A stretch of 64,000 nt of DNA from Octopus vulgaris (taxonomy: Eukaryota). The DNA is taken from assembly GCA_951406725.2 (NCBI GenBank), contig OX597818.1, positions 107,570,001 through 107,634,000 of the forward strand. The letters run 5' to 3'. A program made the translations under genes and the position numbers. The notes beneath the pieces are model-generated. The model did no database searches and had not been told where the DNA came from. It saw nothing but the letters and a program-made list of their open reading frames with translations. Of the stretch, positions 2,431 to 57,678 are shown one piece after another (position 1 is the first letter of the stretch; the number at the start of each line of letters is the position of its first letter).

Positions 2431-3196
2431 GATTATTAGAATAATCAAGGCTTTACAAAGTGCAGTGAAGGAGTAAGAATGGTTGAAAATGGATAGAAAC
2501 ATTAGTTATGACCCTGTAAATTCTGAATTTAACTCATACTTGCTTTGTGAGTCTCTTTCTTGCTTTCAAGCTCTATAGCACTAGTCAAGTACTAAGGTTT
2601 ATATTATTGACTACATCTTCCTAAAAGCTTTGTGTTATTGTGTCTTTGCCAGAGATCATTCACAGATGACTAAGCAAAAATGCTGAAGAACTTCAACTGA
2701 ATTTCATTTTGAACTGACAGAATGTTTGGCTTTCAACTCACATTAAAAACCTTTCATCAAAGTCACTGAGTAAGAATTGAAAAACTTTGGAAACGAATAA
2801 TGTTCCAGGCATGTGTGAATATTGGCAGCAGTAAAAATATCTAAAATCCATGAATTAATGCAAGGAATTCATAGAGAAAATTAATGATTGATGATTATCA
2901 CTGAAATAATTATGGTATTAAAATTACAATTTGCTAATTATGGTTATTCGAAGGTGTATACCTGTGTATGGACACATATTTCGAGAAGACAATGCATGAT
3001 AATACATTATCAACAGACATTGCAGTGTGGAACAAGAGACTACAAGAATGCTGGCGATCGTCTAAGCCAACAATTAATATGTATAACTGTTTACAAAGTG
3101 GAATAACTTAATAAGGTATTAAGGCATTGGATAGAAAAGAAATGCTTTGCGAAGGGCCAGTCTGTGTTTGCCAGTATATACATACAGATGTATATG

Positions 3197-3272
<76 letters not shown>

Positions 3273-3278
<6 letters not shown>

Positions 3279-3737
3279 GTCAGCCCATAGATAACGTGGT
3301 TTTTTTCAATTGCATAAACTAAAAGTCAGAGGGGGATAGGATAAACTACCTGCATCAACTTGCTATAAAAGCAGGTAGTAATTTTACCTTGTACTTATTC
3401 TTAGTACAAGTTTTAAAGAGTGCAGTTCTATTTTAATAGTTATTTTTTCAAAACGTAATAGAAAGTGTGAGGAATATTAGTGCAGTATATGGGGATCGGA
3501 CAATAAGTATAAGCCAGTGTCAGTGGTGGTTTCAGAAATTCTGAGCCAAAAGCTACTGCCTAGAAGATGAGCTTCATCCTGGATGATCTGTAGAGCTTGA
3601 CGAGGACATCCTGCAAACCCTGGTGGAACAAAATCCCATCATAACGGTTGAGGAACTAGTAGAGAAGCTTGGATTTCATCATTCGACCATTAATTGACAC
3701 TTGCGTGCTATCAGAAAAGTCAGCAAATTGGGTCAAT
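3273..3737 (+). mobile_element. Mariner (Tc1/mariner) 5' fragment with pseudogenised transposase N-terminus
   Basis: Begins TATTGGGTCAGCCCA at the end of (TA)n. 3461-3736 translates ESVRNISAVYGDRTISISQCQWWFQKF*AKSYCLEDELHPG*SVELDEDILQTLVEQNPIITVEELVEKLGFHHSTIN*HLRAIRKVSKLGQ (mariner HTH region ending just before WVPH). Stops are TGA, consistent with CGA decay. Confidence 0.85.
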
Positions 3738-6622
3738 TCAATACATGAATTTTTAAAACTACTATCATGAAGGATTAATTTAATTCAATTTATTTTCTCT
3801 TGTCTTTTCATGATTAAATTGGTTTAAACAATTGAAACAAGTAGCATATTTTGATAAAAATGGGAATATTTTTCATTATTAATGATAATGTTCTTAAAGC
3901 ATTTTATACTATTTTTTTAGTACATATATACTTGAGTAGTTCTGTAACTCACAGATCAAATTTATGTAAAGGATGGAGTAACCAAACAGCAGTACATTGC
4001 AGGAAATGTGAATGAGTGTGATGTTGTCTTCTATGAAACAGTGTAAATGTTGGAGTTTCAATCAGTAGCCTCTTCCTTTTTTATATTCTAGTCAAGTGTA
4101 TGCAATTTTTAATGTCGATAAAGCATAATGGCTTAAAAGCAACGCATGATCATCAGTTGTAAAATTACTACAGTTATTGCCATATACCACTGCTCAATTG
4201 TAATATTGCTCTATATATCTGTTTAACTGGTGTTTAAACAGACATGAAATATCTCCATTCAAGATGGTGGTATGTGATTTGAAAAGGTTTATTTTGACAA
4301 TTAGTGAAAGAAAAATATTCTACCAATATTTAGGAACAATTCTTGTCCAAAATGAAGAAGTGGTGTAGGCAGTAACTTAATAGAGCAAACTTGATTTTAA
4401 AAGGGATACACAAAAAAATGCAATGGCAGATTGAAAGTGAGGTGTATTTTCAAATCCACAACATGTAGAGGAATAACAGCTGGTGCTGACATGAACAAAT
4501 AATGTCCATGGTTCATTCAGTCATGTCAGTGACATAACTTGTATTCTAGTAAGGACATAAGAACAACTGGAGTAAGTAAGCAAAGAATGGAAGAATTTCA
4601 GTGAAGAGTTATCTCCATTGACTACAAATGGTTTTTCTGTGTCCAAAGACGAATGAATCAGGGGTGAAAATTGCAGTTCTATACAGATGTATGACTTGGT
4701 GTTCAGAGCACAGCAGAACAACTGAAGACGAGGAATAAATGTGATCTACCAGATGTCTAATGGTAATTTGAATGAAATGCAATGTCGGAACTGTGAAAAT
4801 AGATTTTTTGCATCACATTTGATGGTGATAGTCATAATGATGGTGGTGGTGGCGGTGGCAGCGGCGGTGGTGGTGGTGGTGGTCATCATGACAATTGTCT
4901 ATTCTTAGTGTTCTGTTAGTGATTTTCAGTAGTTTTCACATGAATGTGTGTGTGTGTGTATGTGAAAAATATTGTTGGTTATCTAAATTTGATTATTCCT
5001 ATTTCAAAGACATCATTAAGAAAACTTCTTTAATCTTCTAGACTTTAATTACTCTAAGATAATGCCATGTTTAACATTGTTTTATCCTTGGTATACCTGT
5101 AATGGTATCTTAAATATCGGTTTCTCGATTGGAAAACAACAGTAGCAAAAATAAAAAGAATAATAATCAATGTTATAAACAGAATGAAACTGCTTTTACA
5201 CTTTCAACAAAATATGAACAGTAGAGCTTCTGTATTTTGATAATACATAGCCCAGTATTTTGTTAGTTTAGCATATCAATTATCTGGCTTTCTGACCACT
5301 GATTATCTGACACCTAACAGGAAAATAATAGCTTCAAACAGTCACTACGTGCCAATCTTAATCATCTATATGCCGCAATATTATTACTGCCATTTTTTCT
5401 GAAAATGAGTTCTAACATTGTATTCCTAATAAAATAGAGGAAATAAAATTGAAGTGTAGACAGGAATGTCGTAAAGTCCCTCCAGACAAAGGCAAACTTA
5501 TTAGATAGCATAGCCTCTGTATATTGGAAGAAGATTAGTCTAAAATTGAGCAATTTTGTATGTTGAGAAAATATTGACCAAAAGTACGGAGGTGATTTTA
5601 CAGTCAGCAGGCTTCCGCTTGCTAATTTGACCTGACACAAACCTGAAGTAATTGTTAAACAAGTAAGAAGCAATAAACTGCAGTTGTTGGATCAACCTCG
5701 AGAGAAATCTTCAATCCTTCACTCAGTTTGAGTATATCATATTTGATAATTTCTCTAGCTGATGGCTGTTGGGGAAGCATAATTTTGAGTGGTTTTACTG
5801 TTACACAATTAGGGAACAAATGCCTTGATGCCACTGCTAATGGTTTGTCTTATTTTACAGTGAATTCATCACCGTATAACTATCTATGCAAGTTTTATGA
5901 TTTGGCTGTTGCATGACTCACAATTTACTAATTGTATATCAGTCAAAGAAATGTTTTCACCAATTCTTCAAATAATCAAGTGATTGCAGAGGTGGAATTC
6001 CAACCAGAGGTAAAAAAAAATGATAACATGTCTTTATTGTCCTTCAGCACTTGGAATTTCTTTCAGTAATGAGAATGAACAACTTAATTAAAGGGTCTTG
6101 TAACCATCGGTATGCTTCCCGTTTTTGAAGCCATGTCTGGGAAGAACATTCTGATATTCAATCAGGATTTACAAGAACCTTGTTTCAAATTTCAATATTG
6201 TTAAATTATCAAATGATTTTATCTCAAAAGCAAATATCCCTGTATTCAAAGGAGTGCAATGCCAAAAGATTAAAGGTGGCATTACTTAGAATAGTTGCAT
6301 CCATTAAAAAATGGCAGTAACCACTTTATTATAACATTGAGGCATGTGAATGTTTGCATATATATGTGTGCAAGTGCATGCAGCTGCATGCATGTGTACG
6401 TGTGTATATGTAATATGCATAAAACATGTATGGTATTCAATGCTTTATAGAACATACACACATTTTTTAAAATGCTAAAATAATTACATAACACGTTTAG
6501 ATACATCATACAATATTCCACTTCACTTCATCAGTGTCCTGCAATAAATACAACTGTTATGTAATTATTTTTGCATTTTACTTAAGTTTGTGTGGCTTTA
6601 TAGCATTAAACACCTGTTTCTG

Positions 6623-6787
<165 letters not shown>

Positions 6788-7795
6788 CAAATTCCACCGA
6801 GGTCAACTTTGCTTTTTTATCTTTTCAGAGTTGATGAAATAAGTACCAGTTGAGTACTGGGGTCAATATAATCGACTATCCCCCTCCCATAAATTTTTAG
6901 GCCTTTTGCCTACAACAGAAAGGACTTATTATTATTATTATTATTAATATTAGTTAATATATAAAGGATTGAGGTAACTCCTCCTGAAGATATAGAGTCA
7001 AAATTAAAAGAAGAATGCCATTGTTATCTAGTGAAGTGGGTATTGGCCACTTTCAGATGGTGCTTTTCATGTGCCACTGGCACGTGTCCAAACCATTTCA
7101 TCAGACATCTATGGATAAAACCAGGTATACTGAACTGCAAGAAATTCAACTCAGCATTCCAAGAAGGATGTTTAGAAAAAAATTGGTTTTCCTAAGTCTA
7201 TTAATTGAGCAATGGATTTCTTTAAGATCCAACCAATCAACAGCATTGTCAGCCAAGATCTATAGCAGCTGGGATATTCACAAAAGAGTTAGTCTAATAT
7301 TTGTTCAATAAATAACTTTTTTGGGGGCCAAGAATTTTATTAATGACATCTATTGCAATAAATTATTCAGCTGTCAACTGAACAATGGTTAAATCTCTTT
7401 CTTCTCAGCATTGGAGAAACAAAGTGAAACTAAACGTTCCACTCTCATCCCAAACACACTTTCCCCCAACAACATCTTCATTCCTTACCAATGACACTAT
7501 TACATTGCTTCCCATAATTTCCATAACCTTGTCCAACAGATTTTAATACTTCTGTAGTTTCCTCACTCTAGTGTACTTCCTTTGGATTTGGAACACTTAA
7601 AGAAGCAACTGGTATATGTCGGTCCTTCGATATCATGCTCCCTTCTATACTCCCTGATTTACAACAAGGGTGACTGGCCCTTTTCCACTCTGCCAAACAA
7701 TTTAAGTATCCCAGCTGTGAATCCTGATTGACTGAACATCTTCCCTGCCATCCTCTTTCCCTTCATAACCTTGACTGCTCTCTCTCCCCCTCACC

Positions 7796-9564: not shown

Positions 9565-10185
9565 CTATAGTAGAAGACACTTGCCCAAGGTGCCATGCAG
9601 TGGGACTGAACTTGGAACCTTGTGGTTGATTTTTAGTTCTATCATTTATCAAAAAACTATACACAAACACACAAACATATAATGGGCTTCTTTCAGTTTC
9701 CATCTACCAGATTCACTCACAAGGCTTTGGTCAGCCTGAGGCTATAGTAGAAGACACTTGCCCAAGGTGCCACGCAGTGGGACTGAACTTGGAACCATGT
9801 TGTTGGCTTTTAGTTCTATTATTTATCAAAAAACTATACACAGACACACACACATATAATGAGCTTCTTTCAGTTTCCGTCTACCAGATCCACTCACTAG
9901 GCTTTGCTCAGTCTGAGGTTACAGTAGAAGACACTTGTCCAGGGTGCCATGCAGTGGGACTGAACTTGGAACCATGTGGTTGGCTTTTAGTTCTATTATT
10001 TATCAAGAAGACTATACACAGACACACACACATATAATGGGCTTCTTTCAGTTTCCGTCTACCAGATCCACTCACTAGGCTTTGCTCAGTCTGAGGTTAT
10101 AGTAGAAGACACTTGTCCAAGGTGCCATGCAGTGGGACTGAACTTGGGACCATGTGGTTAGGAAGTAAGGTTCTTATCACACTGC

Positions 10186-18660: not shown

Positions 18661-18795
18661 TATGTGTGTGTGTGTGTGTGTGTCTGACTGTATGCATAAA
18701 CATATAGGTGCATATATATTTACACACACACACGCACACGCATTACTATATATACATATGTGTATATGTACATATTTATAAATATATACTCACAC

Positions 18796-18908
<113 letters not shown>

Positions 18909-19086
18909 ATAATAAATATTAGGGAATAAATCCAAATTTACAGGAAAAAAATCAGATTTAGGATTAAATCCAATTTTATAGTAAAATATTATAAAATATT
19001 ATTAGAGACAAAACCACTATTTTACAAAACAAACAAGGAAAGACTTAATCAATACATAAAATTTTAATAAATAGTCAAAAAAACCG

Positions 19087-19129
19087 CCACTACAATTGTT
19101 TCTTGTCTTGATCGACAATCTTCAGGTGG
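19087..19129 (-). ncRNA. Minimal type I hammerhead ribozyme (left arm)
   Basis: Exact reverse complement of 24588-24630. Confidence 0.85.
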
Positions 19130-19563
19130 ACTTCCAATCTAAAATATCAATATTTTAAAATATAAAAATAATAATTTTAAAATAATTAAAGTATGAATGA
19201 AAAAATATAAATATATAATCCATATATAACCTATATATAATCCATATATAATCAATATATAAACAATATATAAACTAAAATAAACCTATCAACAATTAAA
19301 TATAAATATAAAATATAAAATATAAAATATAAAACAAAACAAAAAAATAATAATAATATAATAATAAACTATATATACACCCATACACATATAACTAATT
19401 ATATATAACCATATCTAACTACATACACTAAATCACACACCTATATATATATCCCTATACATACACATAAAAACGTCTAGGCAACTATAAATAAATAAAA
19501 TAGCTAAATACTTCAACACAATACTTATTCATACTCCCACACACACACATACAACCCACATTC

Positions 19564-21230
19564 ACGCTCTAGAAAACGGACATCACTTAAAATTATGAAC
19601 GGAGAAATGGAATAAATGGAATTAAAAATTATATTCACTTGGTAAAACGAACACTACTTAAAAATTATGAATGAAACAATGCAATAAAACAACAGACATC
19701 GCAAATAGACACAAATTACTACGAATTCCTTAACAAACCTACCATGATAAACCAAAACTCATAAAAACATATAATGATAAAATCTCCCTTTACTAAACTC
19801 TATAACATACCTATATAGCAATCCCCCTAACCTAAACATTCACACACAAATACACACACGTAAACCACACACCCACGACATATACAAATACCCACACCAC
19901 TTACACATACCTATACATACATATAAACCTCAACATATACTCCAAAAACCCACTCAACCCCACACAGACAAATAAACACAAAAATTATGAATGGATTCTT
20001 TTATAAAACTACCATGATAAGCTAAAACTCACAAAAACATAAATTATAAAACCTCCCTTTACTAAACACTATAACATACTTATATAGCAATCCCTTTAAC
20101 CTATACATTCACACACAAATACACACACGTAAACCACACACCCATAACAAATACAAACACCCACCCCACCCACACACACCCACAAGTACATATAAGCCCC
20201 AACATATACACCAAACAAAATTACTTTACCAAGGAACTTAACATATGTATAAAAAGTATAACCGCTCTGGAAACGAACATCTTTTAAAACAATGAATGGA
20301 GAAATGGAATAAATGGAATTAAAAATAATATTCACGTGGCAAAACGAACACCACTCAAAAATTATGAATGAAACAATGTAATAAAACAACCAACATCGAA
20401 AATAGACAAATTACCACGAATTCCCTAAAAAAAACCATGATAAACCAAAACTCTTAAAAACATATAACGATAAAATCTCCCTTTGCTAAAACTCTATAAC
20501 AAACCTATATAGCAATCCCCCTAACCTAAACATTCACACACAAATACACACACGTAAACCACAGACCCACGACTTATACAAATACCCACCTCACTCACAC
20601 ATACCTATACTAACTTATAAACCTCAATATACACCAAAAACCCACTCCCTCCCCACACAGACAAATTAACACATACATCCCAAAACCTAAATAACAAACC
20701 CATATACACATTCACACACAAACACACACACACGCAAAACACACACACACAACAGATACATATACTCCCTCACATATACGCATATACATACTCACTAAAC
20801 TCGATATATACAACAATATTTACACACCCACACTCATACAGATAAATAAACTATACAACTAAAAACTCACACACAATCTCATATACATAAACACTCCAAT
20901 GAAAAACAACATTAAATACATCGTAATTAACCAGAATATCAAAAATAACAATATGACATAAGGAGAAATAAAATACATACTTACAAGTCAGTTTCAAATT
21001 ATGAAGTGAAATTAAATTCTTAGCCGTTAAAAAAACCAAACCAAAATTACGTTACCATAGAAATATAACTTATGTATAAAAAGAATACGCGCCATGGAAA
21101 GTAAACGTCATTTAAAATTATGAATGGAGAAATAGAATAAATGGAACTAAAAACTATATCCACGTGGCAAACCAACACTACTTAAAAAAAATTATGAATG
21201 GATTCTTTAATAAAACTACCATGATAAATT
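19564..21230. repeat. Internal nested tandem subrepeats of the palindrome arm (mirrored in the right arm)
   Basis: Block GGAGAAATGGAATAAATGGAA..CAC.TGG.AAA at ~19600, ~20298 and ~21126. Block CCATGATAA..AAAACTC..CTATATAGCAATCCC..CACACACAAATACACACACGTAAACCAC at ~19742, ~20011 and ~20435. Confidence 0.85.
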
Positions 21231-24200
21231 ATTATATACATTTATGAGCTTTAGCTCATCTTAGCAGCTCTAACAAACAACTTGCAGTAACCCAAGTCTA
21301 TTCTCGATGCCTACCTTACTACTACACTATTCCATTCCCAAATCCAAGCAACGCTAGCCCGCCACCCGGTTACAATTCCCAACTCCACCCATTCATTCAC
21401 AATTTCAATGACGTTCGCCTCCACAGCGCTACGTATTAGCCTCAATATATACACCGGTGATTCGCTTTCACATCCGTGCGGATGGGTGAGAGTATACATT
21501 GAGTGTAGTGATGGGGCTCCCTTTACTATACACATTTGTACCTGTGTGGTAGTCTCCATGTGTATATTCACGCACGGGTATAAATGCAGGGGGTACACGC
21601 GCACGACATGTGCGTGTACCCCCTCACATGTACATATGCATGCTAGTTGGGCTCGATATGTGCAACGGTGTAATCGCGCCCGCATACATGCAGATGGGCG
21701 AATTGCACAATCAAAATACGCACACGTGTGTGCGTTCCCTGGCTGTGCAGTTCACCCATCTGGGTGTGAGTGGGTGTAAACGTATTGCTGTGGATGTCGA
21801 CCCACATAGCAATCCCAATATATTCATCCATACATGGACGCACGTGCGTGAAGCACATGCACACAACTAATACGTACAACCCCCCAATACACACTCATAT
21901 ACATACGTATCAAGCTCGACATCCACAGCAATACGTTTACACCCACTCACACCCAGATGGGTGAACTGCACAGCCAGGGAACGCACACACGTGTGCGTAT
22001 TTTGATTGTGCAATTCGCCCATCTGCATGTATGCGGGCGCGATTACACCGTTGCACATATCGAGCCCAACTAGCATGCATATGTACATGTGAGGGGGTAC
22101 ACGCACATGTCGTGCGCGTGTACCCCCTGCATTTATACCTGTGCGTGAATATACACATGGAGACTACCACACAGGTACAAATGTGTATAGTAAAGGGAGC
22201 CCCATCACTACACTCAATGTATACTCTCACCCATCCGCACGGATGTGAAAGCGAATCACCGGTGTATATATTGAGGCTAATACGTAGCGCTGTGGAGGCG
22301 AACGTCGTTGAAATTGTGAATGAATGGGTGGAGTTGGGAATTGTAACCGGGTGGCGGGCTAGCGTTGCTTGGATTTGGGAATGGAATAGTGTAGTAGTAA
22401 GGTAGGCATCGAGAATAGACTTGGGTTACTGCAAGTTGTTTGTTAGAGCTGCTAAGATGAGCTAAAGCTCATAAATGTATATAATAATTTATCATGGTAG
22501 TTTTATTAAAGAATCCATTCATAATTTTTTTTAAGTAGTGTTGGTTTGCCACGTGGATATAGTTTTTAGTTCCATTTATTCTATTTCTCCATTCATAATT
22601 TTAAATGACGTTTACTTTCCATGGCGCGTATTCTTTTTATACATAAGTTATATTTCTATGGTAACGTAATTTTGGTTTGGTTTTTTTTAACGGCTAAGAA
22701 TTTAATTTCACTTCATAATTTGAAACTGACTTGTAAGTATGTATTTTATTTCTCCTTATGTCATATTGTTATTTTTGATATTCTGGTTAATTACGATGTA
22801 TTTAATGTTGTTTTTCATTGGAGTGTTTATGTATATGAGATTGTGTGTGAGTTTTTAGTTGTATAGTTTATTTATCTGTATGAGTGTGGGTGTGTAAATA
22901 TTGTTGTATATATCGAGTTTAGTGAGTATGTATATGCGTATATGTGAGGGAGTATATGTATCTGTTGTGTGTGTGTGTTTTGCGTGTGTGTGTGTTTGTG
23001 TGTGAATGTGTATATGGGTTTGTTATTTAGGTTTTGGGATGTATGTGTTAATTTGTCTGTGTGGGGAGGGAGTGGGTTTTTGGTGTATATTGAGGTTTAT
23101 AAGTTAGTATAGGTATGTGTGAGTGAGGTGGGTATTTGTATAAGTCGTGGGTCTGTGGTTTACGTGTGTGTATTTGTGTGTGAATGTTTAGGTTAGGGGG
23201 ATTGCTATATAGGTTTGTTATAGAGTTTTAGCAAAGGGAGATTTTATCGTTATATGTTTTTAAGAGTTTTGGTTTATCATGGTTTTTTTTAGGGAATTCG
23301 TGGTAATTTGTCTATTTTCGATGTTGGTTGTTTTATTACATTGTTTCATTCATAATTTTTGAGTGGTGTTCGTTTTGCCACGTGAATATTATTTTTAATT
23401 CCATTTATTCCATTTCTCCATTCATTGTTTTAAAAGATGTTCGTTTCCAGAGCGGTTATACTTTTTATACATATGTTAAGTTCCTTGGTAAAGTAATTTT
23501 GTTTGGTGTATATGTTGGGGCTTATATGTACTTGTGGGTGGGTGTGGGTGGGGTGGGTGTTTGTATTTGTTATGGGTGTGTGGTTTACGTGTGTGTATTT
23601 GTGTGTGAATGTATAGGTTAAAGGGATTGCTATATAAGTATGTTATAGTGTTTAGTAAAGGGAGGTTTTATAATTTATGTTTTTGTGAGTTTTAGCTTAT
23701 CATGGTAGTTTTATAAAAGAATCCATTCATAATTTTTGTGTTTATTTGTCTGTGTGGGGTTGAGTGGGTTTTTGGAGTATATGTTGAGGTTTATATGTAT
23801 GTATAGGTATGTGTAAGTGGTGTGGGTATTTGTATATGTCGTGGGTGTGTGGTTTACGTGTGTGTATTTGTGTGTGAATGTTTAGGTTAGGGGGATTGCT
23901 ATATAGGTATGTTATAGAGTTTAGTAAAGGGAGATTTTATCATTATATGTTTTTATGAGTTTTGGTTTATCATGGTAGGTTTGTTAAGGAATTCGTAGTA
24001 ATTTGTGTCTATTTGCGATGTCTGTTGTTTTATTGCATTGTTTCATTCATAATTTTTAAGTAGTGTTCGTTTTACCAAGTGAATATAATTTTTAATTCCA
24101 TTTATTCCATTTCTCCGTTCATAATTTTAAGTGATGTCCGTTTTCTAGAGCGTGAATGTGGGTTGTATGTGTGTGTGTGGGAGTATGAATAAGTATTGTG

Positions 24201-24587
24201 TTGAAGTATTTAGCTATTTTATTTATTTATAGTTGCCTAGACGTTTTTATGTGTATGTATAGGGATATATATATAGGTGTGTGATTTAGTGTATGTAGTT
24301 AGATATGGTTATATATAATTAGTTATATGTGTATGGGTGTATATATAGTTTATTATTATATTATTATTATTTTTTTGTTTTGTTTTATATTTTATATTTT
24401 ATATTTTATATTTATATTTAATTGTTGATAGGTTTATTTTAGTTTATATATTGTTTATATATTGATTATATATGGATTATATATAGGTTATATATGGATT
24501 ATATATTTATATTTTTTCATTCATACTTTAATTATTTTAAAATTATTATTTTTATATTTTAAAATATTGATATTTTAGATTGGAAGT

Positions 24588-24630
24588 CCACCTGAAGATT
24601 GTCGATCAAGACAAGAAACAATTGTAGTGG
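24588..24630 (+). ncRNA. Minimal type I hammerhead ribozyme (right arm)
   Basis: CCAC (stem I) CUGAAGA (core) UUGUC-gaucaa-GACAA (stem II) GAAA C-AAUU-G UA GUGG (stem I'). All catalytic core nucleotides are canonical, predicted cleavage is after GUA (A24626), and the helix III region ACAAUUGU is palindromic. Confidence 0.85.
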
Positions 24631-24727
24631 CGGTTTTTTTGACTATTTATTAAAATTTTATGTATTGATTAAGTCTTTCCTTGTTTGTTTTGTAAAATAG
24701 TGGTTTTGTCTCTAATAATATTTTATG

Positions 24728-24760
<33 letters not shown>

Positions 24761-24959
24761 GTATATGTGTGTACAAATATATATGTAAATATACGTTTAT
24801 ATACACACATGGTGTGTTTCTGTATGTGTGTATATGCAAAAAGCATAAGCAAAAAGATAGTGTGGCACCTTCACCAACCCTCACTTTTCTCTGCCATTTC
24901 ATTGATTTGTTGATATATACAACCCATGGCAAATAAGTTTTTATACTTCTTCACTTTTA

Positions 24960-28394: not shown

Positions 28395-28826
28395 AACTCT
28401 CTTTACTCTTTACTCTTTTACTTGTTTCAGTCATTTGACTGTGGCCATGCTGGAGCACCGCCTTTAATCGAGCAAATCGACCCCGGGACTTATTCTTTTG
28501 TAAGCCCAGTACTTATTCTATCGGTCTCTTTTGCCGAACCGCTAAGTAACGGGGACACACCAGCATCGGTTGTCAAGCAATGCGAGGGGGGGGGACAAAC
28601 ATAGACACACAAACACACACATGCATAGATATATATACATATATACGACGGGCTTCTTTTTTTTCAGTTTCCGTCTACCAAATCCACTCACAAGGCTTTG
28701 GTCGGCCCGAGGCTATAGTAGAAGACACTTGCCCAAGGTGCCACGCAGTGGGACTGAACCCGGAACCATCATCATCGTTTAACGTGGTTCGTAAACAAGC
28801 TACTTACCACACAGCCACTCCTGCGC
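28395..28826 (-). mobile_element. Young full-length SINE family B with TSD CTATAACT
   Basis: CpG-rich copy; CTATAACT at 28387-28394 and 28827-28834. Confidence 0.85.
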
Positions 28827-52929: not shown

Positions 52930-53320
52930 GCCATGCAGTCTTAATTGAGAAAGAAAGCAAGTGATGCTGGATCATAGATATAGTATACCCAGCTGACAAC
53001 AAGGTATGTGATAATGAAGAAAGAAAAGTCAAGAGATATGACAGGTTAGCTTGGGAGGTTAAGCAGTTGTGGTTGATGGAAAATGTGGTAGTAGTACCAA
53101 TAATTGTCAGAGCCCTGATAACAGCAAGTAAAAAGTTTTAGAAGTACATGGAATAAATAGGGGCTGCGATAAGGGTGGAGCACTTGCAGAAAACAGCACT
53201 GCCTGGAACCGCTCAAATACTCCGGAAGAGTGCTCGAAAAATAAGAGGTGTTCCCTTAGTTCACTGTAGTGAACAGCTGACACTGTAGTACATCTCCAGA
53301 GTTAGAAGCTGTGCAAAGGC
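52930..53320 (+). mobile_element. 5'-truncated R4/Dong-like 3' end, same family as 1430-1970, in (TAA)n
   Basis: VLIEKESK*CWIIDIVYPADNKVCD..RYDRLAWEVKQLW..PIIVRAL..LQKTALPGTAQILR. Ends AGAAGCTGTGCAAAGGC-(AAT)n, as in the copy at 1430. Confidence 0.85.
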
Positions 53321-53385
<65 letters not shown>

Positions 53386-54899
53386 CATTTGTATTGGCCA
53401 TGACGCTGCTCACTATGATACAACAAATAGTTAAAATAGCTTGCAATTTGGGAAATAGTCAGATAAATCATCCCCTTTTCATGGATGATATAAAGGTTTA
53501 TGCACAAACAGAGAAACAACTTGAAAGTCTTGTACATACTATCTGCATTTTCTCAAATGAGGTAAGTATGGAATTTGGGATAGGAAACTGTGCTATATTG
53601 AAAATGAAATGAGGAAGATTTGAAAGAAGCCAGGGAAATGAAATGCTAAATAGGCTAACAATGAGTGTGGTTGAGAAAGGTATAAATACTTGGGGATACT
53701 GGAAGCAGACGAGATAAAAAAAATGAAGAAATGACACAAATTACCAGTAGGGAGTGCATGAGGAGAGTCAGAAATTTAATTCCAGTCAAAACTGAATTCC
53801 AAAAATGTTATTGAAGTAATAATTTCAAGAGCAGTACCCTTAATCAGATATGGAGTTGAAATTATAGGCTGGACCAAAAGCAATATAAAGAAATTTGACA
53901 GAAAAACTAGAAAGTTGTTGATAATGCATGGAACCCACCATCCAAAAGCTGATACCAACCAGTGAATTAAGAACTGGTGATGAAGCACAAAATAGGAGGA
54001 AAGGACAAGAATGACATACGAAGAGAGCACATCAGAAAGATTGAAGAGAAACGTCTGCATGGCCAGTTTTGGAGTGCCACAGAAGACGTAGGTGGAAGAA
54101 GAAATTCTGGGCTTGGTTAAAAAAGAGGGTAATTAAAAAAAATAGAAACAGAGAGCCTAATTGTAGCAGCCTAAGATTAAGTGATAAAAACAAACAACTT
54201 GAGAAAAAATATATATATAGAAAATATGTGTCAGAAAAGTGTTAAGTCTGTGGAACTTGGAATGAGATAGTGGCACACATTGTGACAGAATGCCCAAATT
54301 GGCACTGGAAGAATATAAGAAATGGAGTCACAACCAAGTTGTAAAAATTTTACACTGGGAACTGTGCCAGAAATGGGGATTTGAAACTGGAAACACATGG
54401 TACAATCATCGAGTGAAAAGTGTATTGAAGTTGGAGAAATGCAAGATTTTGTGGGATTTTGCTATTCAAACAGACAAGATATTAGAAAATAATCGACCAG
54501 GTATAATGATCATAGATAAGGAAAAGCGAAGTTGTTTACTTATTGACCAATCATGCCCATCTGATTCCAGAATCATAAAGAAAGAGGAAGAAAAATACGA
54601 TCCCTTAAAGTTTGAAATAGGAAGAATTTGGAGCATGCAAACAGTAATGGTCATACTTATAGAAATTGGTGCCTTGGAAACGGTAAGCCAAGATATAGAC
54701 AAAATGGCTGAGACTGGAATGCTTGGTAAAGCTTCTGCAGAAAGTTTGTCTCTTAAGGGACCGCAAGGATTATCAGGAGTGTTCTAAGCACTGGAAAGAC
54801 TGCCAAAAGTTTGTGGATACCTAAGGTTACAGGTAGTAATCCACTAACCACATAAATCCTACCAGGAATAAGACCGAACCTAAGTCAAACGAAAACAAT
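53386..54899 (+). mobile_element. Decayed R4/Dong-like retrotransposon: RT core, CCHC zinc knuckle and REL endonuclease
   Basis: INHPLFMDDIKVYA..MEFG..CA (53394..53612), YLG, C*VCG..E..AHIVTEC, HNQVVKILHWELC..KILWDFAIQTDK..NNRPGIMIID..LLID (54290..54787); several frameshifts. Confidence 0.88.
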
Positions 54900-57107: not shown

Positions 57108-57678
57108 GGAGTGGCTGTCTGGTAAGTAGCTTGCTTACCAGCCACATGGTTCCGGGTTCATTCCCACTACATGGCATCTTGGGCAAGTGTCTTCTACTAT
57201 AACCTCAGACTGAGCAAAGCCTAGTGAGTGGATCTGGTAGATGGAAACTGAAAGAAGCCCATTATATGTTTGTTTGTCTGTGTATAGTTTATTGATAAAT
57301 AATAGAACTAAAAGCCAACCACATGGTTCCAAGTTCAGTCCCACTGCATGGCACCTTGGGCAAGTGTCTTCTGCTATAGCCTCAGGCCGACCAAAGTCTT
57401 GTGAGTGGATTTGGTAGACAGAAACTGCAAGAAGCCCATCGTATATATGTATATATATGTATGTGTGTATATGTTTGTGTGTCCATGTTTGTCACCCCAC
57501 CATTGCTTGACAACCGATGGTGGTGTGTTTACATTCCTGTAACTTAGTGGTTCAGCAAAAGAGACTGATAGAATAAGTACTAGGCTTACAAAGAATAAGT
57601 CCTGGGGTTGATTTACTCGACTAAAGGTGGTGCTCCAGCATGTCCACAGTCAAATGACTGAAACAAGTAAAAGAGAGT
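57108..57678 (+). mobile_element. Dimeric SINE family B (5' half, linker, then near-full copy)
   Basis: Same linker (TATAGTTT..TTGATAAATAATAGAACTAAAA) as the 9565-10188 array; ORFs 9777..10037 and 57135..57344 are nearly identical. Confidence 0.85.

Follow-up and report, generated by a model that had tools for sequence, protein, structure and literature searches.

A palindromic insertion of a Hydra-clade Penelope-like element in Octopus vulgaris, formed head to head and centred on a core with an ADAR-like mutation signature

We analyzed a stretch of 64,000 nucleotides from the genome of Octopus vulgaris (GenBank assembly GCA_951406725.2, contig OX597818.1, positions 107,570,001 to 107,634,000; hereafter the window) and found that the 5.7-kb near-perfect palindrome that it carries is a known insertion form of Penelope-like elements (PLEs), here in an oversized family of the Hydra clade. 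In our reading, two 5'-truncated 3' ends of such an element were joined head to head in a (TA)n target, and the A-to-G hypermutation of the core that they carry was likely written by the RNA-editing enzyme ADAR, acting on earlier hairpin transcripts; to this reading as a whole we assign a probability of about 0.75. The family, the inverted architecture, the tailed and short ends, the private alleles common to both arms, and the spectrum and polarity of the mutations are direct observations. Inverted 5'-truncated copies and one-sided tails have already been described for PLEs, including the Hydra-clade Penelope-13_HM (PMC8557442).

The arms were aligned by a self-BLAST of the window, the TA arrays were delineated with Tandem Repeats Finder (TRF), and hammerhead cores were sought on both strands of the 64 kb with the pattern CUGANGA...GAAA. 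Positions 18991-21800 align with 24726-21916 at 99.858% identity over 2811 columns, with 3 substitutions and 1 indel (20176/23541, 21029/22688, which is the indel, 21409/22307 and 21576/22140), and enclose a spacer of 115 bp. A preliminary description, made from the letters of the DNA alone, had reported two such arms with about 4 differences in a (TA)n setting, and both points are borne out, with TA arrays on both flanks (the TRF array on the left spans 18747-18919). The ~85 extra bases that it had noticed beyond the end of the left arm (18905-18990) match the tail of the PLE family. It had further regarded the insertion as a complete dimer, yet both arms are 5'-truncated. The spacer is native element sequence and not a foreign loop: in other copies it runs straight into the right arm. 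As it had stated, the element lacks an open reading frame (ORF) for a reverse transcriptase (RT) or endonuclease (EN): its longest stop-free frame has 162 aa, and neither the 6 element frames nor 79 other window frames (85 of the 117 candidates) gave a Pfam match above the cut-off. The same frames, including those of 146-162 aa in the core, revealed no host gene context. The features are listed below by window position; reference positions are those of a natural copy, L059, with the ORF at 139-2659, the hammerhead at 6695 and the short and tail ends at 6829 and 6918, respectively (UTR, untranslated region).

18747-18904, no strand: left (TA)n-rich target array (from the TRF array 18747-18919 and the sequence)
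18905-18990, minus: ~85-nt PLE tail, confined to this arm, being the distal 3' end and equal to the beginning of the following unit's 5' UTR; it matches reference positions up to 6918, an end common to most copies
18991-21800, minus: left arm, the 5'-truncated 3' UTR of a Hydra-clade PLE with the tailed end, reaching reference position 3503
19087-19129, minus: left minimal type I hammerhead with a CCAC/GUGG stem I, 5-bp stem II and, as stem III, the palindrome ACAAUUGU; cleavage predicted after 19091 (coordinates transferred in mirror image from the right copy; supported by family conservation and covariation)
21228-21429, minus: mirror of hypermutated segment D
21503-21725, minus: mirror of hypermutated segment C
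21800-21801, no strand: head-to-head junction with 1-nt microhomology
21801-21915, plus: spacer, native sequence that runs on into the right arm as its additional 5' reach (reference 3388-3502) and belongs to segment B
21801-21990, plus: segment B (the part present here), an inverted UTR module and one arm of a fossil palindrome centred at 21990/21991
21991-22213, plus: segment C, a direct UTR module and the other arm of the fossil palindrome
22287-22488, plus: segment D, an inverted UTR module
21916-24726, plus: right arm, a 5'-truncated 3' UTR of repeated G/T-rich modules with the short, tail-less end
24588-24630, plus: right minimal type I hammerhead; predicted cut after 24626
24727-24803, no strand: right (TA)n-rich target array (TRF)

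Judged by its sequence, the palindrome almost certainly belongs to a young, high-copy PLE family of the Hydra clade. The left terminus gave 1596 first-look candidates in the 2.8-Gb genome of the octopus itself, and all 40 that were scored are 98-100% identical. We examined 52 other insertions, namely 38 loci retrieved with a tail-containing query and 14 new loci retrieved with a tail-less one. In other copies the arms continue at 96-99% identity into an ORF-bearing unit, the sequence ~730 bp upstream of the window spacer being the end of an ORF of 839-840 aa. This single ORF, absent from the window copy, codes, by its motifs, for an RT followed by a C-terminal GIY-YIG EN: motif reading of the 839-aa version of locus L048, aligned with 13 homologues, reveals an RT-like GLYRDD and a C-terminal AVYIG...R..QH, while sequence searches of Pfam and PDB returned no RT or EN match for it. 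The clade is defined by ORF motifs, a hammerhead and a (TA)n target (PMC8557442, section 11). The ORF displays the DKT motif that replaces DKG in this clade (SDKT), the CxCX5C linker (CTCRDKSNC), and CxxC (CYLC) and CxH (CRH) near the end of the EN, and the N-terminal RWK position reads RIKWK (KWK), most homologues having RWK or RWR in the same column. The pseudo-long terminal repeat (pLTR) holds a canonical hammerhead, and TA or TA-rich sequence follows essentially every listed free 3' end. Compared by eye with the supplement of PMC8557442, the ORF match P0005 (E=7e-105) is nearly the same as Hydra-2_Amil. The non-diagnostic description of the clade as generally short (<3 kb) does not apply, the young unit having 6.3-6.8 kb and older ones that reach the 3' end ~5.0-6.2 kb. 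A Naiad/Chlamys PLE was considered and rejected: that group has an N-terminal EN and lacks a canonical hammerhead, whereas here the EN is C-terminal and the hammerhead present. The earlier view of a very young, PLE-related element agrees with these results; the stand-alone non-coding ribozyme retroelement that it proposed is instead the 3' UTR of an autonomous PLE whose ~840-aa ORF lies elsewhere. The family itself may already be deposited in Repbase.

Two peculiarities of the unit may be added here. Approximately at residues 480-590 of the L048 ORF, between the RT thumb and the linker, lies an Asn-rich low-complexity insertion that is absent from most homologues. A 512-bp insert in the 3' UTR (reference 5330-5841) is present in L050, L052, L059 and L064 and absent from the window and most copies; since it matches older subfamilies, its absence is probably derived.

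The motif scan detected exactly two hammerhead cores in the window, at 19125 on the minus strand and 24592 on the plus strand, in keeping with the earlier placement of a ribozyme ~100 bp from each end; the predicted cleavage after 24626 lies 100 nt from the right, short end. Their anatomy, CCAC-CUGAAGA-UUGUC/GACAA-GAA-ACAAUUGU-A^GUGG, is that tabulated for Hydra PLE hammerheads (PMC8557442). Rfam at E<=1 recovered no hammerhead, only microsatellite-driven miRNA matches. The window variant is the commonest of the family (68 motif matches), and the claim that the hammerheads are intact stands for their sequence and is limited to it. Stem I and the core are kept across subfamilies, stem II shows paired changes, and a double change keeps stem III palindromic. 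This pattern fits the minimal PLE type, presumed to act as dimers with low activity (PMC4209133); the fold of the 47-nt monomer is not superior to that of shuffled versions (z=-0.5). A read-through RNA of the palindrome would hold one sense hammerhead only, paired with the other arm.

The architecture of the window palindrome proved to be common in the family. Among the 52 other loci, 33 are two-ended head-to-head inverted insertions. With the window included, 34 of 34 two-ended loci combine a tail end and a short end, each lying in TA; in the first sample of 38 loci the query selects the tail end, and the test there is that the partner always lacks a tail. Of the two arms, it is the short-end one that extends further 5' in 15 loci and the tailed one in 19 (p=0.61), and the lengths of the two arms are uncorrelated (rho 0.14, p=0.42). 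Random pairing is expected to yield a spacer of <=116 bp in 5% of cases, and such a spacer together with arms >=2 kb in 1%; given these frequencies and the 11-bp spacer of L101, the near-symmetric window palindrome is the expected extreme of a common process. Overlaps at the junctions are mostly 0-3 nt (18/35), with some longer overlaps and short insertions.

At some loci the two arms of a dimer also share sequence variants. In the window they differ in 3 of 2743 columns, compared to 0.69% to the nearest other copy, and have 8 private alleles in common. The pooled within-locus arm distance is 0.47% against a mean median of 1.11% to other copies, a figure that includes a paralog misalignment at L033; the 3.8% arm difference there was considered as editing and rejected in favor of that misalignment. 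Both arms of L045 carry the deletion 5973-6568, and both arms of L053 the deletion 5225-6622. At L117+L069+L048 (G000:C3 ~63.968-63.983 Mb) an inverted arm accompanies a tandem pair: the inverted arm at L069 has ORF-region private alleles like the downstream unit and 3' UTR alleles like the upstream unit, and lacks the 3439-3732 deletion of the downstream unit, which suggests either a strand transfer from one UTR copy of a tandem RNA to the other or a pair of conversion tracts. L045, L053 and L067 are internally deleted derivatives, and the breakpoint of L067 also lies at 6568, hinting at a mobile deleted source copy.

At the centre of the palindrome lies a GC-rich core with a history of its own. 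Seventeen older copies, 85-95% identical in the ORF, are outgroups to the young clade, which is nested in the ORF tree on a branch of 0.015; those that run through the 3' UTR lack the core. Its building blocks are UTR modules of the element itself, alternating in orientation as A(-) B(-) C(+) D(-) E(+). Counted against the column-wise majority letters of homologous modules, unless window letters are named, segment C shows T>C at 49/101 and A>G at 2/44 (p=5e-8), segment D shows A>G at 34/85 and T>C at 0/47 (p=3e-8), and segment B shows T>C at 25/57 and A>G at 14/131 (p=9e-7), with T>C 0/125 and A>G 3/64 in the control segment E. Window letters give T>C 49/101 and A>G 1/44 for C, A>G 37/85 and T>C 1/47 for D, and T>C 12/33 and A>G 16/76 for the part of B present. 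When the choice of alignment was made blind to transitions, the core as a whole gave A>G 56/263 with T>C 76/199, the remaining UTR A>G 46/646 with T>C 12/1225, and the ORF 6/1041 and 6/873, respectively (~0.6%). Against the older module of L131, segment C aligns without gaps over 199 nt with T>C at 42/91 and 22 other changes, scoring 0.90 versus a background of 0.38+/-0.06 and far above any other register. The direct modules outside the core show a mild sense-strand excess of A>G over T>C; G>A is similar there (29/499), and the A>G may be low-complexity noise or lighter editing.

The polarity of these changes is consistent across comparisons. The T>C rate is 0.40-0.47 against all three tiers of homologous modules (control 0.02), and each of the sister arms B and C keeps the old letter where the other has changed, in 34 and 17 columns versus 5 and 1. 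These module-tier and sister-arm tests led us to reject the reverse polarity, i.e., CpG decay or C loss in the older copies. The case for segment B rests on the orthologue and sister-arm tests. The changed letters are nearly fixed in young arms (1256/1326 letters in C, 984/996 in D), and recent private mutations of the core run the opposite way, C>T and G>A.

Clustered, strand-asymmetric A>G change in duplex-forming sequence is the mark of ADAR, and on the evidence of this sequence pattern an ADAR origin of the core hypermutation is probable. On the opposite strand, B+C reads as an antisense arm with a sense arm after it, A>G affecting 44-48% of A in both, which is what hyper-editing of one long hairpin would be expected to leave. 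ADAR hyper-editing has a ceiling of ~50% and a 5'-neighbor order of U>A>C>G. The 5'-neighbor rates here are U 0.39, A 0.38, C 0.20 and G 0.10 (U/A vs. C/G, p=1e-5), and changes with G at -1 are depleted (3/30 vs. 122/372, p=0.008); they are not CpG-linked, CpG contexts changing less often. Depletion of upstream G is reported as the ADAR motif in all metazoans tested, octopus included, and the hyper-editing signal of octopus as among the top two of the species compared (PMC5625713). A second-round preference for A opposite C was also considered (11/45 vs. 5/43); it is weak and is not claimed.

The dimers themselves were probably formed by twin priming at the 3' end. The GIY-YIG endonuclease would cut both strands of the (TA)n target; one 3'-OH would prime at the distal start, giving the tail, and the other at a start ~85 nt upstream, giving the short end. 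Both cDNAs would be templated by RNA of one source locus, and the two, truncated independently, would be joined end to end. A Poseidon PLE studied in vitro cleaves AT-rich DNA on both strands and extends each of them, and its RT has two start sites, which delimit the tail (PMC11167929). In an ancestor of the young subfamily, read-through transcripts from dimers of this kind would then have folded into long hairpins, been hyper-edited at ~40-50% of A, and been reverse-transcribed and inherited. At least two edited junctions, B/C in one orientation and D in the other, would have been built into the 3' UTR, yielding the ~1-kb core that is carried by the young copies reaching this region. The link to double-stranded RNA and ADAR drawn in the preliminary description is in this respect plausible, the core bearing an ADAR-like mutation signature.

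The preliminary description had instead proposed a snap-back dimer, in which a single cDNA folds back and copies itself into the second arm. The near-identity of the arms with private alleles in common, the frequent junction microhomology and the almost spacer-free fossil B/C junction would all suit it. However, a tail missing from the template cannot arise in a fold-back copy, and the L069 inverted arm, with the alleles of the upstream tandem unit and without the downstream unit's deletion, is not such a copy of its neighbor. Because the window spacer belongs to the tail-less arm, self-copying is disfavored and priming from both ends of the target favored; for the 15 of 34 loci, the window and 14 others, where the tail-less arm is longer 5' it is largely refuted, and overall, with the 15:19 split in 5' reach, we regard it as improbable. 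A fold-back chimera of reads or assembly is far less likely still. Near-perfect palindromes are a known long-read artefact, and the window junction is unseen in short-read contigs of 4 runs (3 studies), which hold the family in native order; since such contigs drop rare variants, this absence is no evidence. The left and right flanks are unlike, there are 4 differences between the arms, the ends of the palindrome coincide with the two discrete termini of the family, the spacer is native, and the same asymmetric architecture recurs at 33 other loci. It is scarcely credible that the palindrome is an independent, non-autonomous retrozyme with its own palindromic unit. This copy does lack the ORF and bear a hammerhead at each end, and retrozymes have been proposed to derive from PLE pLTRs (bioRxiv 10.64898/2026.07.22.740005), but its junction is found in 0/52 other loci and its arms extend into the ORF-bearing unit, so that it is not a tandem unit without a coding parent.

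For the core, an origin of T>C/A>G other than ADAR is unlikely, whether by RT misincorporation of dG opposite rU under dNTP imbalance, by conversion between the arms with a bias towards GC, or by selection favoring a stable structure. B and C are both T>C on the present sense strand, as dG:rU wobble could produce, and the core folds strongly (z=-5.6). However, the changes are limited to segments at inverted junctions, leaving the rest of the UTR nearly free of T>C, and A>G in D would require the opposite polarity. GC-biased conversion should be strand-symmetric and include A>C/T>G, whereas here one kind of transition prevails per strand. A 5' U is favored as much as a 5' A, with G disfavored, and T>C on both arms of a hairpin breaks pairs rather than strengthening them.

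Several observations weigh against the reading of twin priming followed by ADAR editing. Two-ended insertions make up only 4/14 of the loci found without the tail in the query, versus 29/38 with it. In only 12/30 inverted pairs (2 ties) is the distance between the arms below that to the nearest other copy. At L042 (G000:C4 ~22.481-22.491 Mb) they differ at 19 sites over reference 2785-4652 and are nearly identical distal to 4652, with 3 private shared alleles; such mosaic arms imply that template switching or conversion also occurs. In the core, segment A has no strand asymmetry (T>C 4/27, A>G 12/74; p=1.0), segment D rests on 3 alignments only, and pairwise comparisons of paralogs confound the change of B in module orientation, the control A>G in them being already 0.33-0.47. 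Segment E, the expected partner of D, has hardly changed (2/26 A in its proximal part). The mammal-type preference for a 3' G is lacking (5/15 vs. 125/387, p=1), and the invertebrate-type enrichment of a downstream A is absent (3'-neighbor rates C 0.36, A 0.33, G 0.33, T 0.29), a lack of 3' preference that suits a non-ADAR source. No freshly hyper-edited arm was found among the present-day dimers, and the mutation bias was noticed by eye before it was tested. When the window, the young loci and the 17 older ones were searched for a second independent hyper-edited inversion, the core alone was recovered, along with matches outside the element that we take to be of microsatellite type (not each examined).

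The fixed ADAR-like hypermutation at the centre of the palindrome is the part worth following. If ADAR was its source, the core is a datable fossil of germline hyper-editing that was copied into DNA and amplified, and ADAR as a driver of retrotransposon subfamily evolution becomes testable in a lineage of extreme editing; a 2016 review describes the part played by ADAR editing in how Alu subfamilies evolve as not determined (PMC4982230). On balance we lean towards a self-feeding loop, in which integration makes palindromes, their hairpin transcripts are edited by ADAR in the germ line and reverse-transcribed into the element's own 3' UTR, and the resulting structured core, richer in GC and CpG, founded an expanding subfamily. 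The edited core may have given that subfamily a new promoter or RNA structure. Such a loop, if true, would provide a documented instance in which A-to-I RNA editing passed into heritable DNA sequence and shaped a subfamily of transposons. In the literature seen, mostly outside subscription journals, we found no precedent for ADAR changes fixed in a retroelement, nor for twin priming in PLEs. The strict pairing of one tail with one short end offers a genomic test of how PLE inverted ends form and links the two RT starts seen in vitro to the two ends of the target. Further, the genome has likely gained many kilobase-scale palindromes from this family, which would give rise to double-stranded RNA and hamper assembly.

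Other repeats lie around the palindrome and beside family copies. A 177-bp tandem repeat of 3.4 copies occupies 9566-10159 of the window, with a related dispersed repeat at 28413-28769, 57111-57675 and elsewhere. Degraded remnants like long interspersed nuclear elements (LINEs) are present at 53289-53609 and 54266-54784 on the plus strand, with a weak RVT_1 match (E=0.006, below the cut-off); one frame presumably represents a restriction-like endonuclease end. Beside other copies we noted frames that we take to be Tc1/mariner-like transposases (L041, oriented 1354-2406, 351 aa; L055), an RTE-like RT of 590 aa at the L065 flank and an APE-endonuclease-like frame at the L044 flank. At L033 (oriented 3814-4365) the copy adjoins an exon-like frame that we assume to resemble a Cys-loop ligand-gated ion channel, and its palindrome may hence be intronic.

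Comparison with known systems places both components of the reading. A>G hypermutation of viral genomes, including avian retrovirus cases, and APOBEC DNA editing of retrotransposons have been reported. Like the core, ADAR hyper-editing of inverted repeats as described in PMC4365171 and PMC5625713 displays clustered one-strand transitions in duplex-forming sequence with upstream G depleted. What sets the present changes apart is that they stand in germline DNA and have become fixed and multiplied in a retroelement that is active and not viral.

For the dimer, LINE-1 twin priming likewise uses two primers from one target site to give an inversion joined by microhomology; there, the second primer is internal and nothing is duplicated, whereas here both primers would start at the 3' end, which is duplicated. 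Non-LTR retrozymes share the type I hammerhead and a non-coding copy, and are described as tandem non-autonomous units (bioRxiv 10.64898/2026.07.22.740005), in contrast to the truncated inverted copy of a coding element in the window. The Poseidon element PAc of Anolis (Frangieh et al. 2024, PMC11167929) resembles our family in its AT-rich target, the cutting and extension of both strands and the two tail-defining RT starts, and differs in clade and in that these starts lie within the ORF rather than upstream of the ATG; the sections of that account consulted here do not address inverted dimers or the pairing of one tail with one short end. Finally, the Hydra-clade PLEs Penelope-13_HM, Hydra-1_Obim and Hydra-2_Amil (Craig et al. 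2021, PMC8557442) are described with the same single ORF, C-terminal GIY-YIG, DKT, CxCX5C and CxxC/CxH motifs, canonical hammerhead near the 3' end and (TA)n target, and the entry for Penelope-13_HM records an inverted, 5'-truncated copy and one hammerhead per strand. Against these, the octopus unit of ~6.3-6.8 kb, with its modular 3' UTR of 3.7-4.2 kb, is more than twice the size of the 27 published Hydra families (1.1-3.05 kb), and its tail is ~85 nt long as against the 30-40 nt given there (PMC8557442). By eye, its hammerhead and protein also differ from those of Hydra-1_Obim, and the Asn-rich insertion in the ORF and the hypermutated core set it apart from the published Hydra PLEs.

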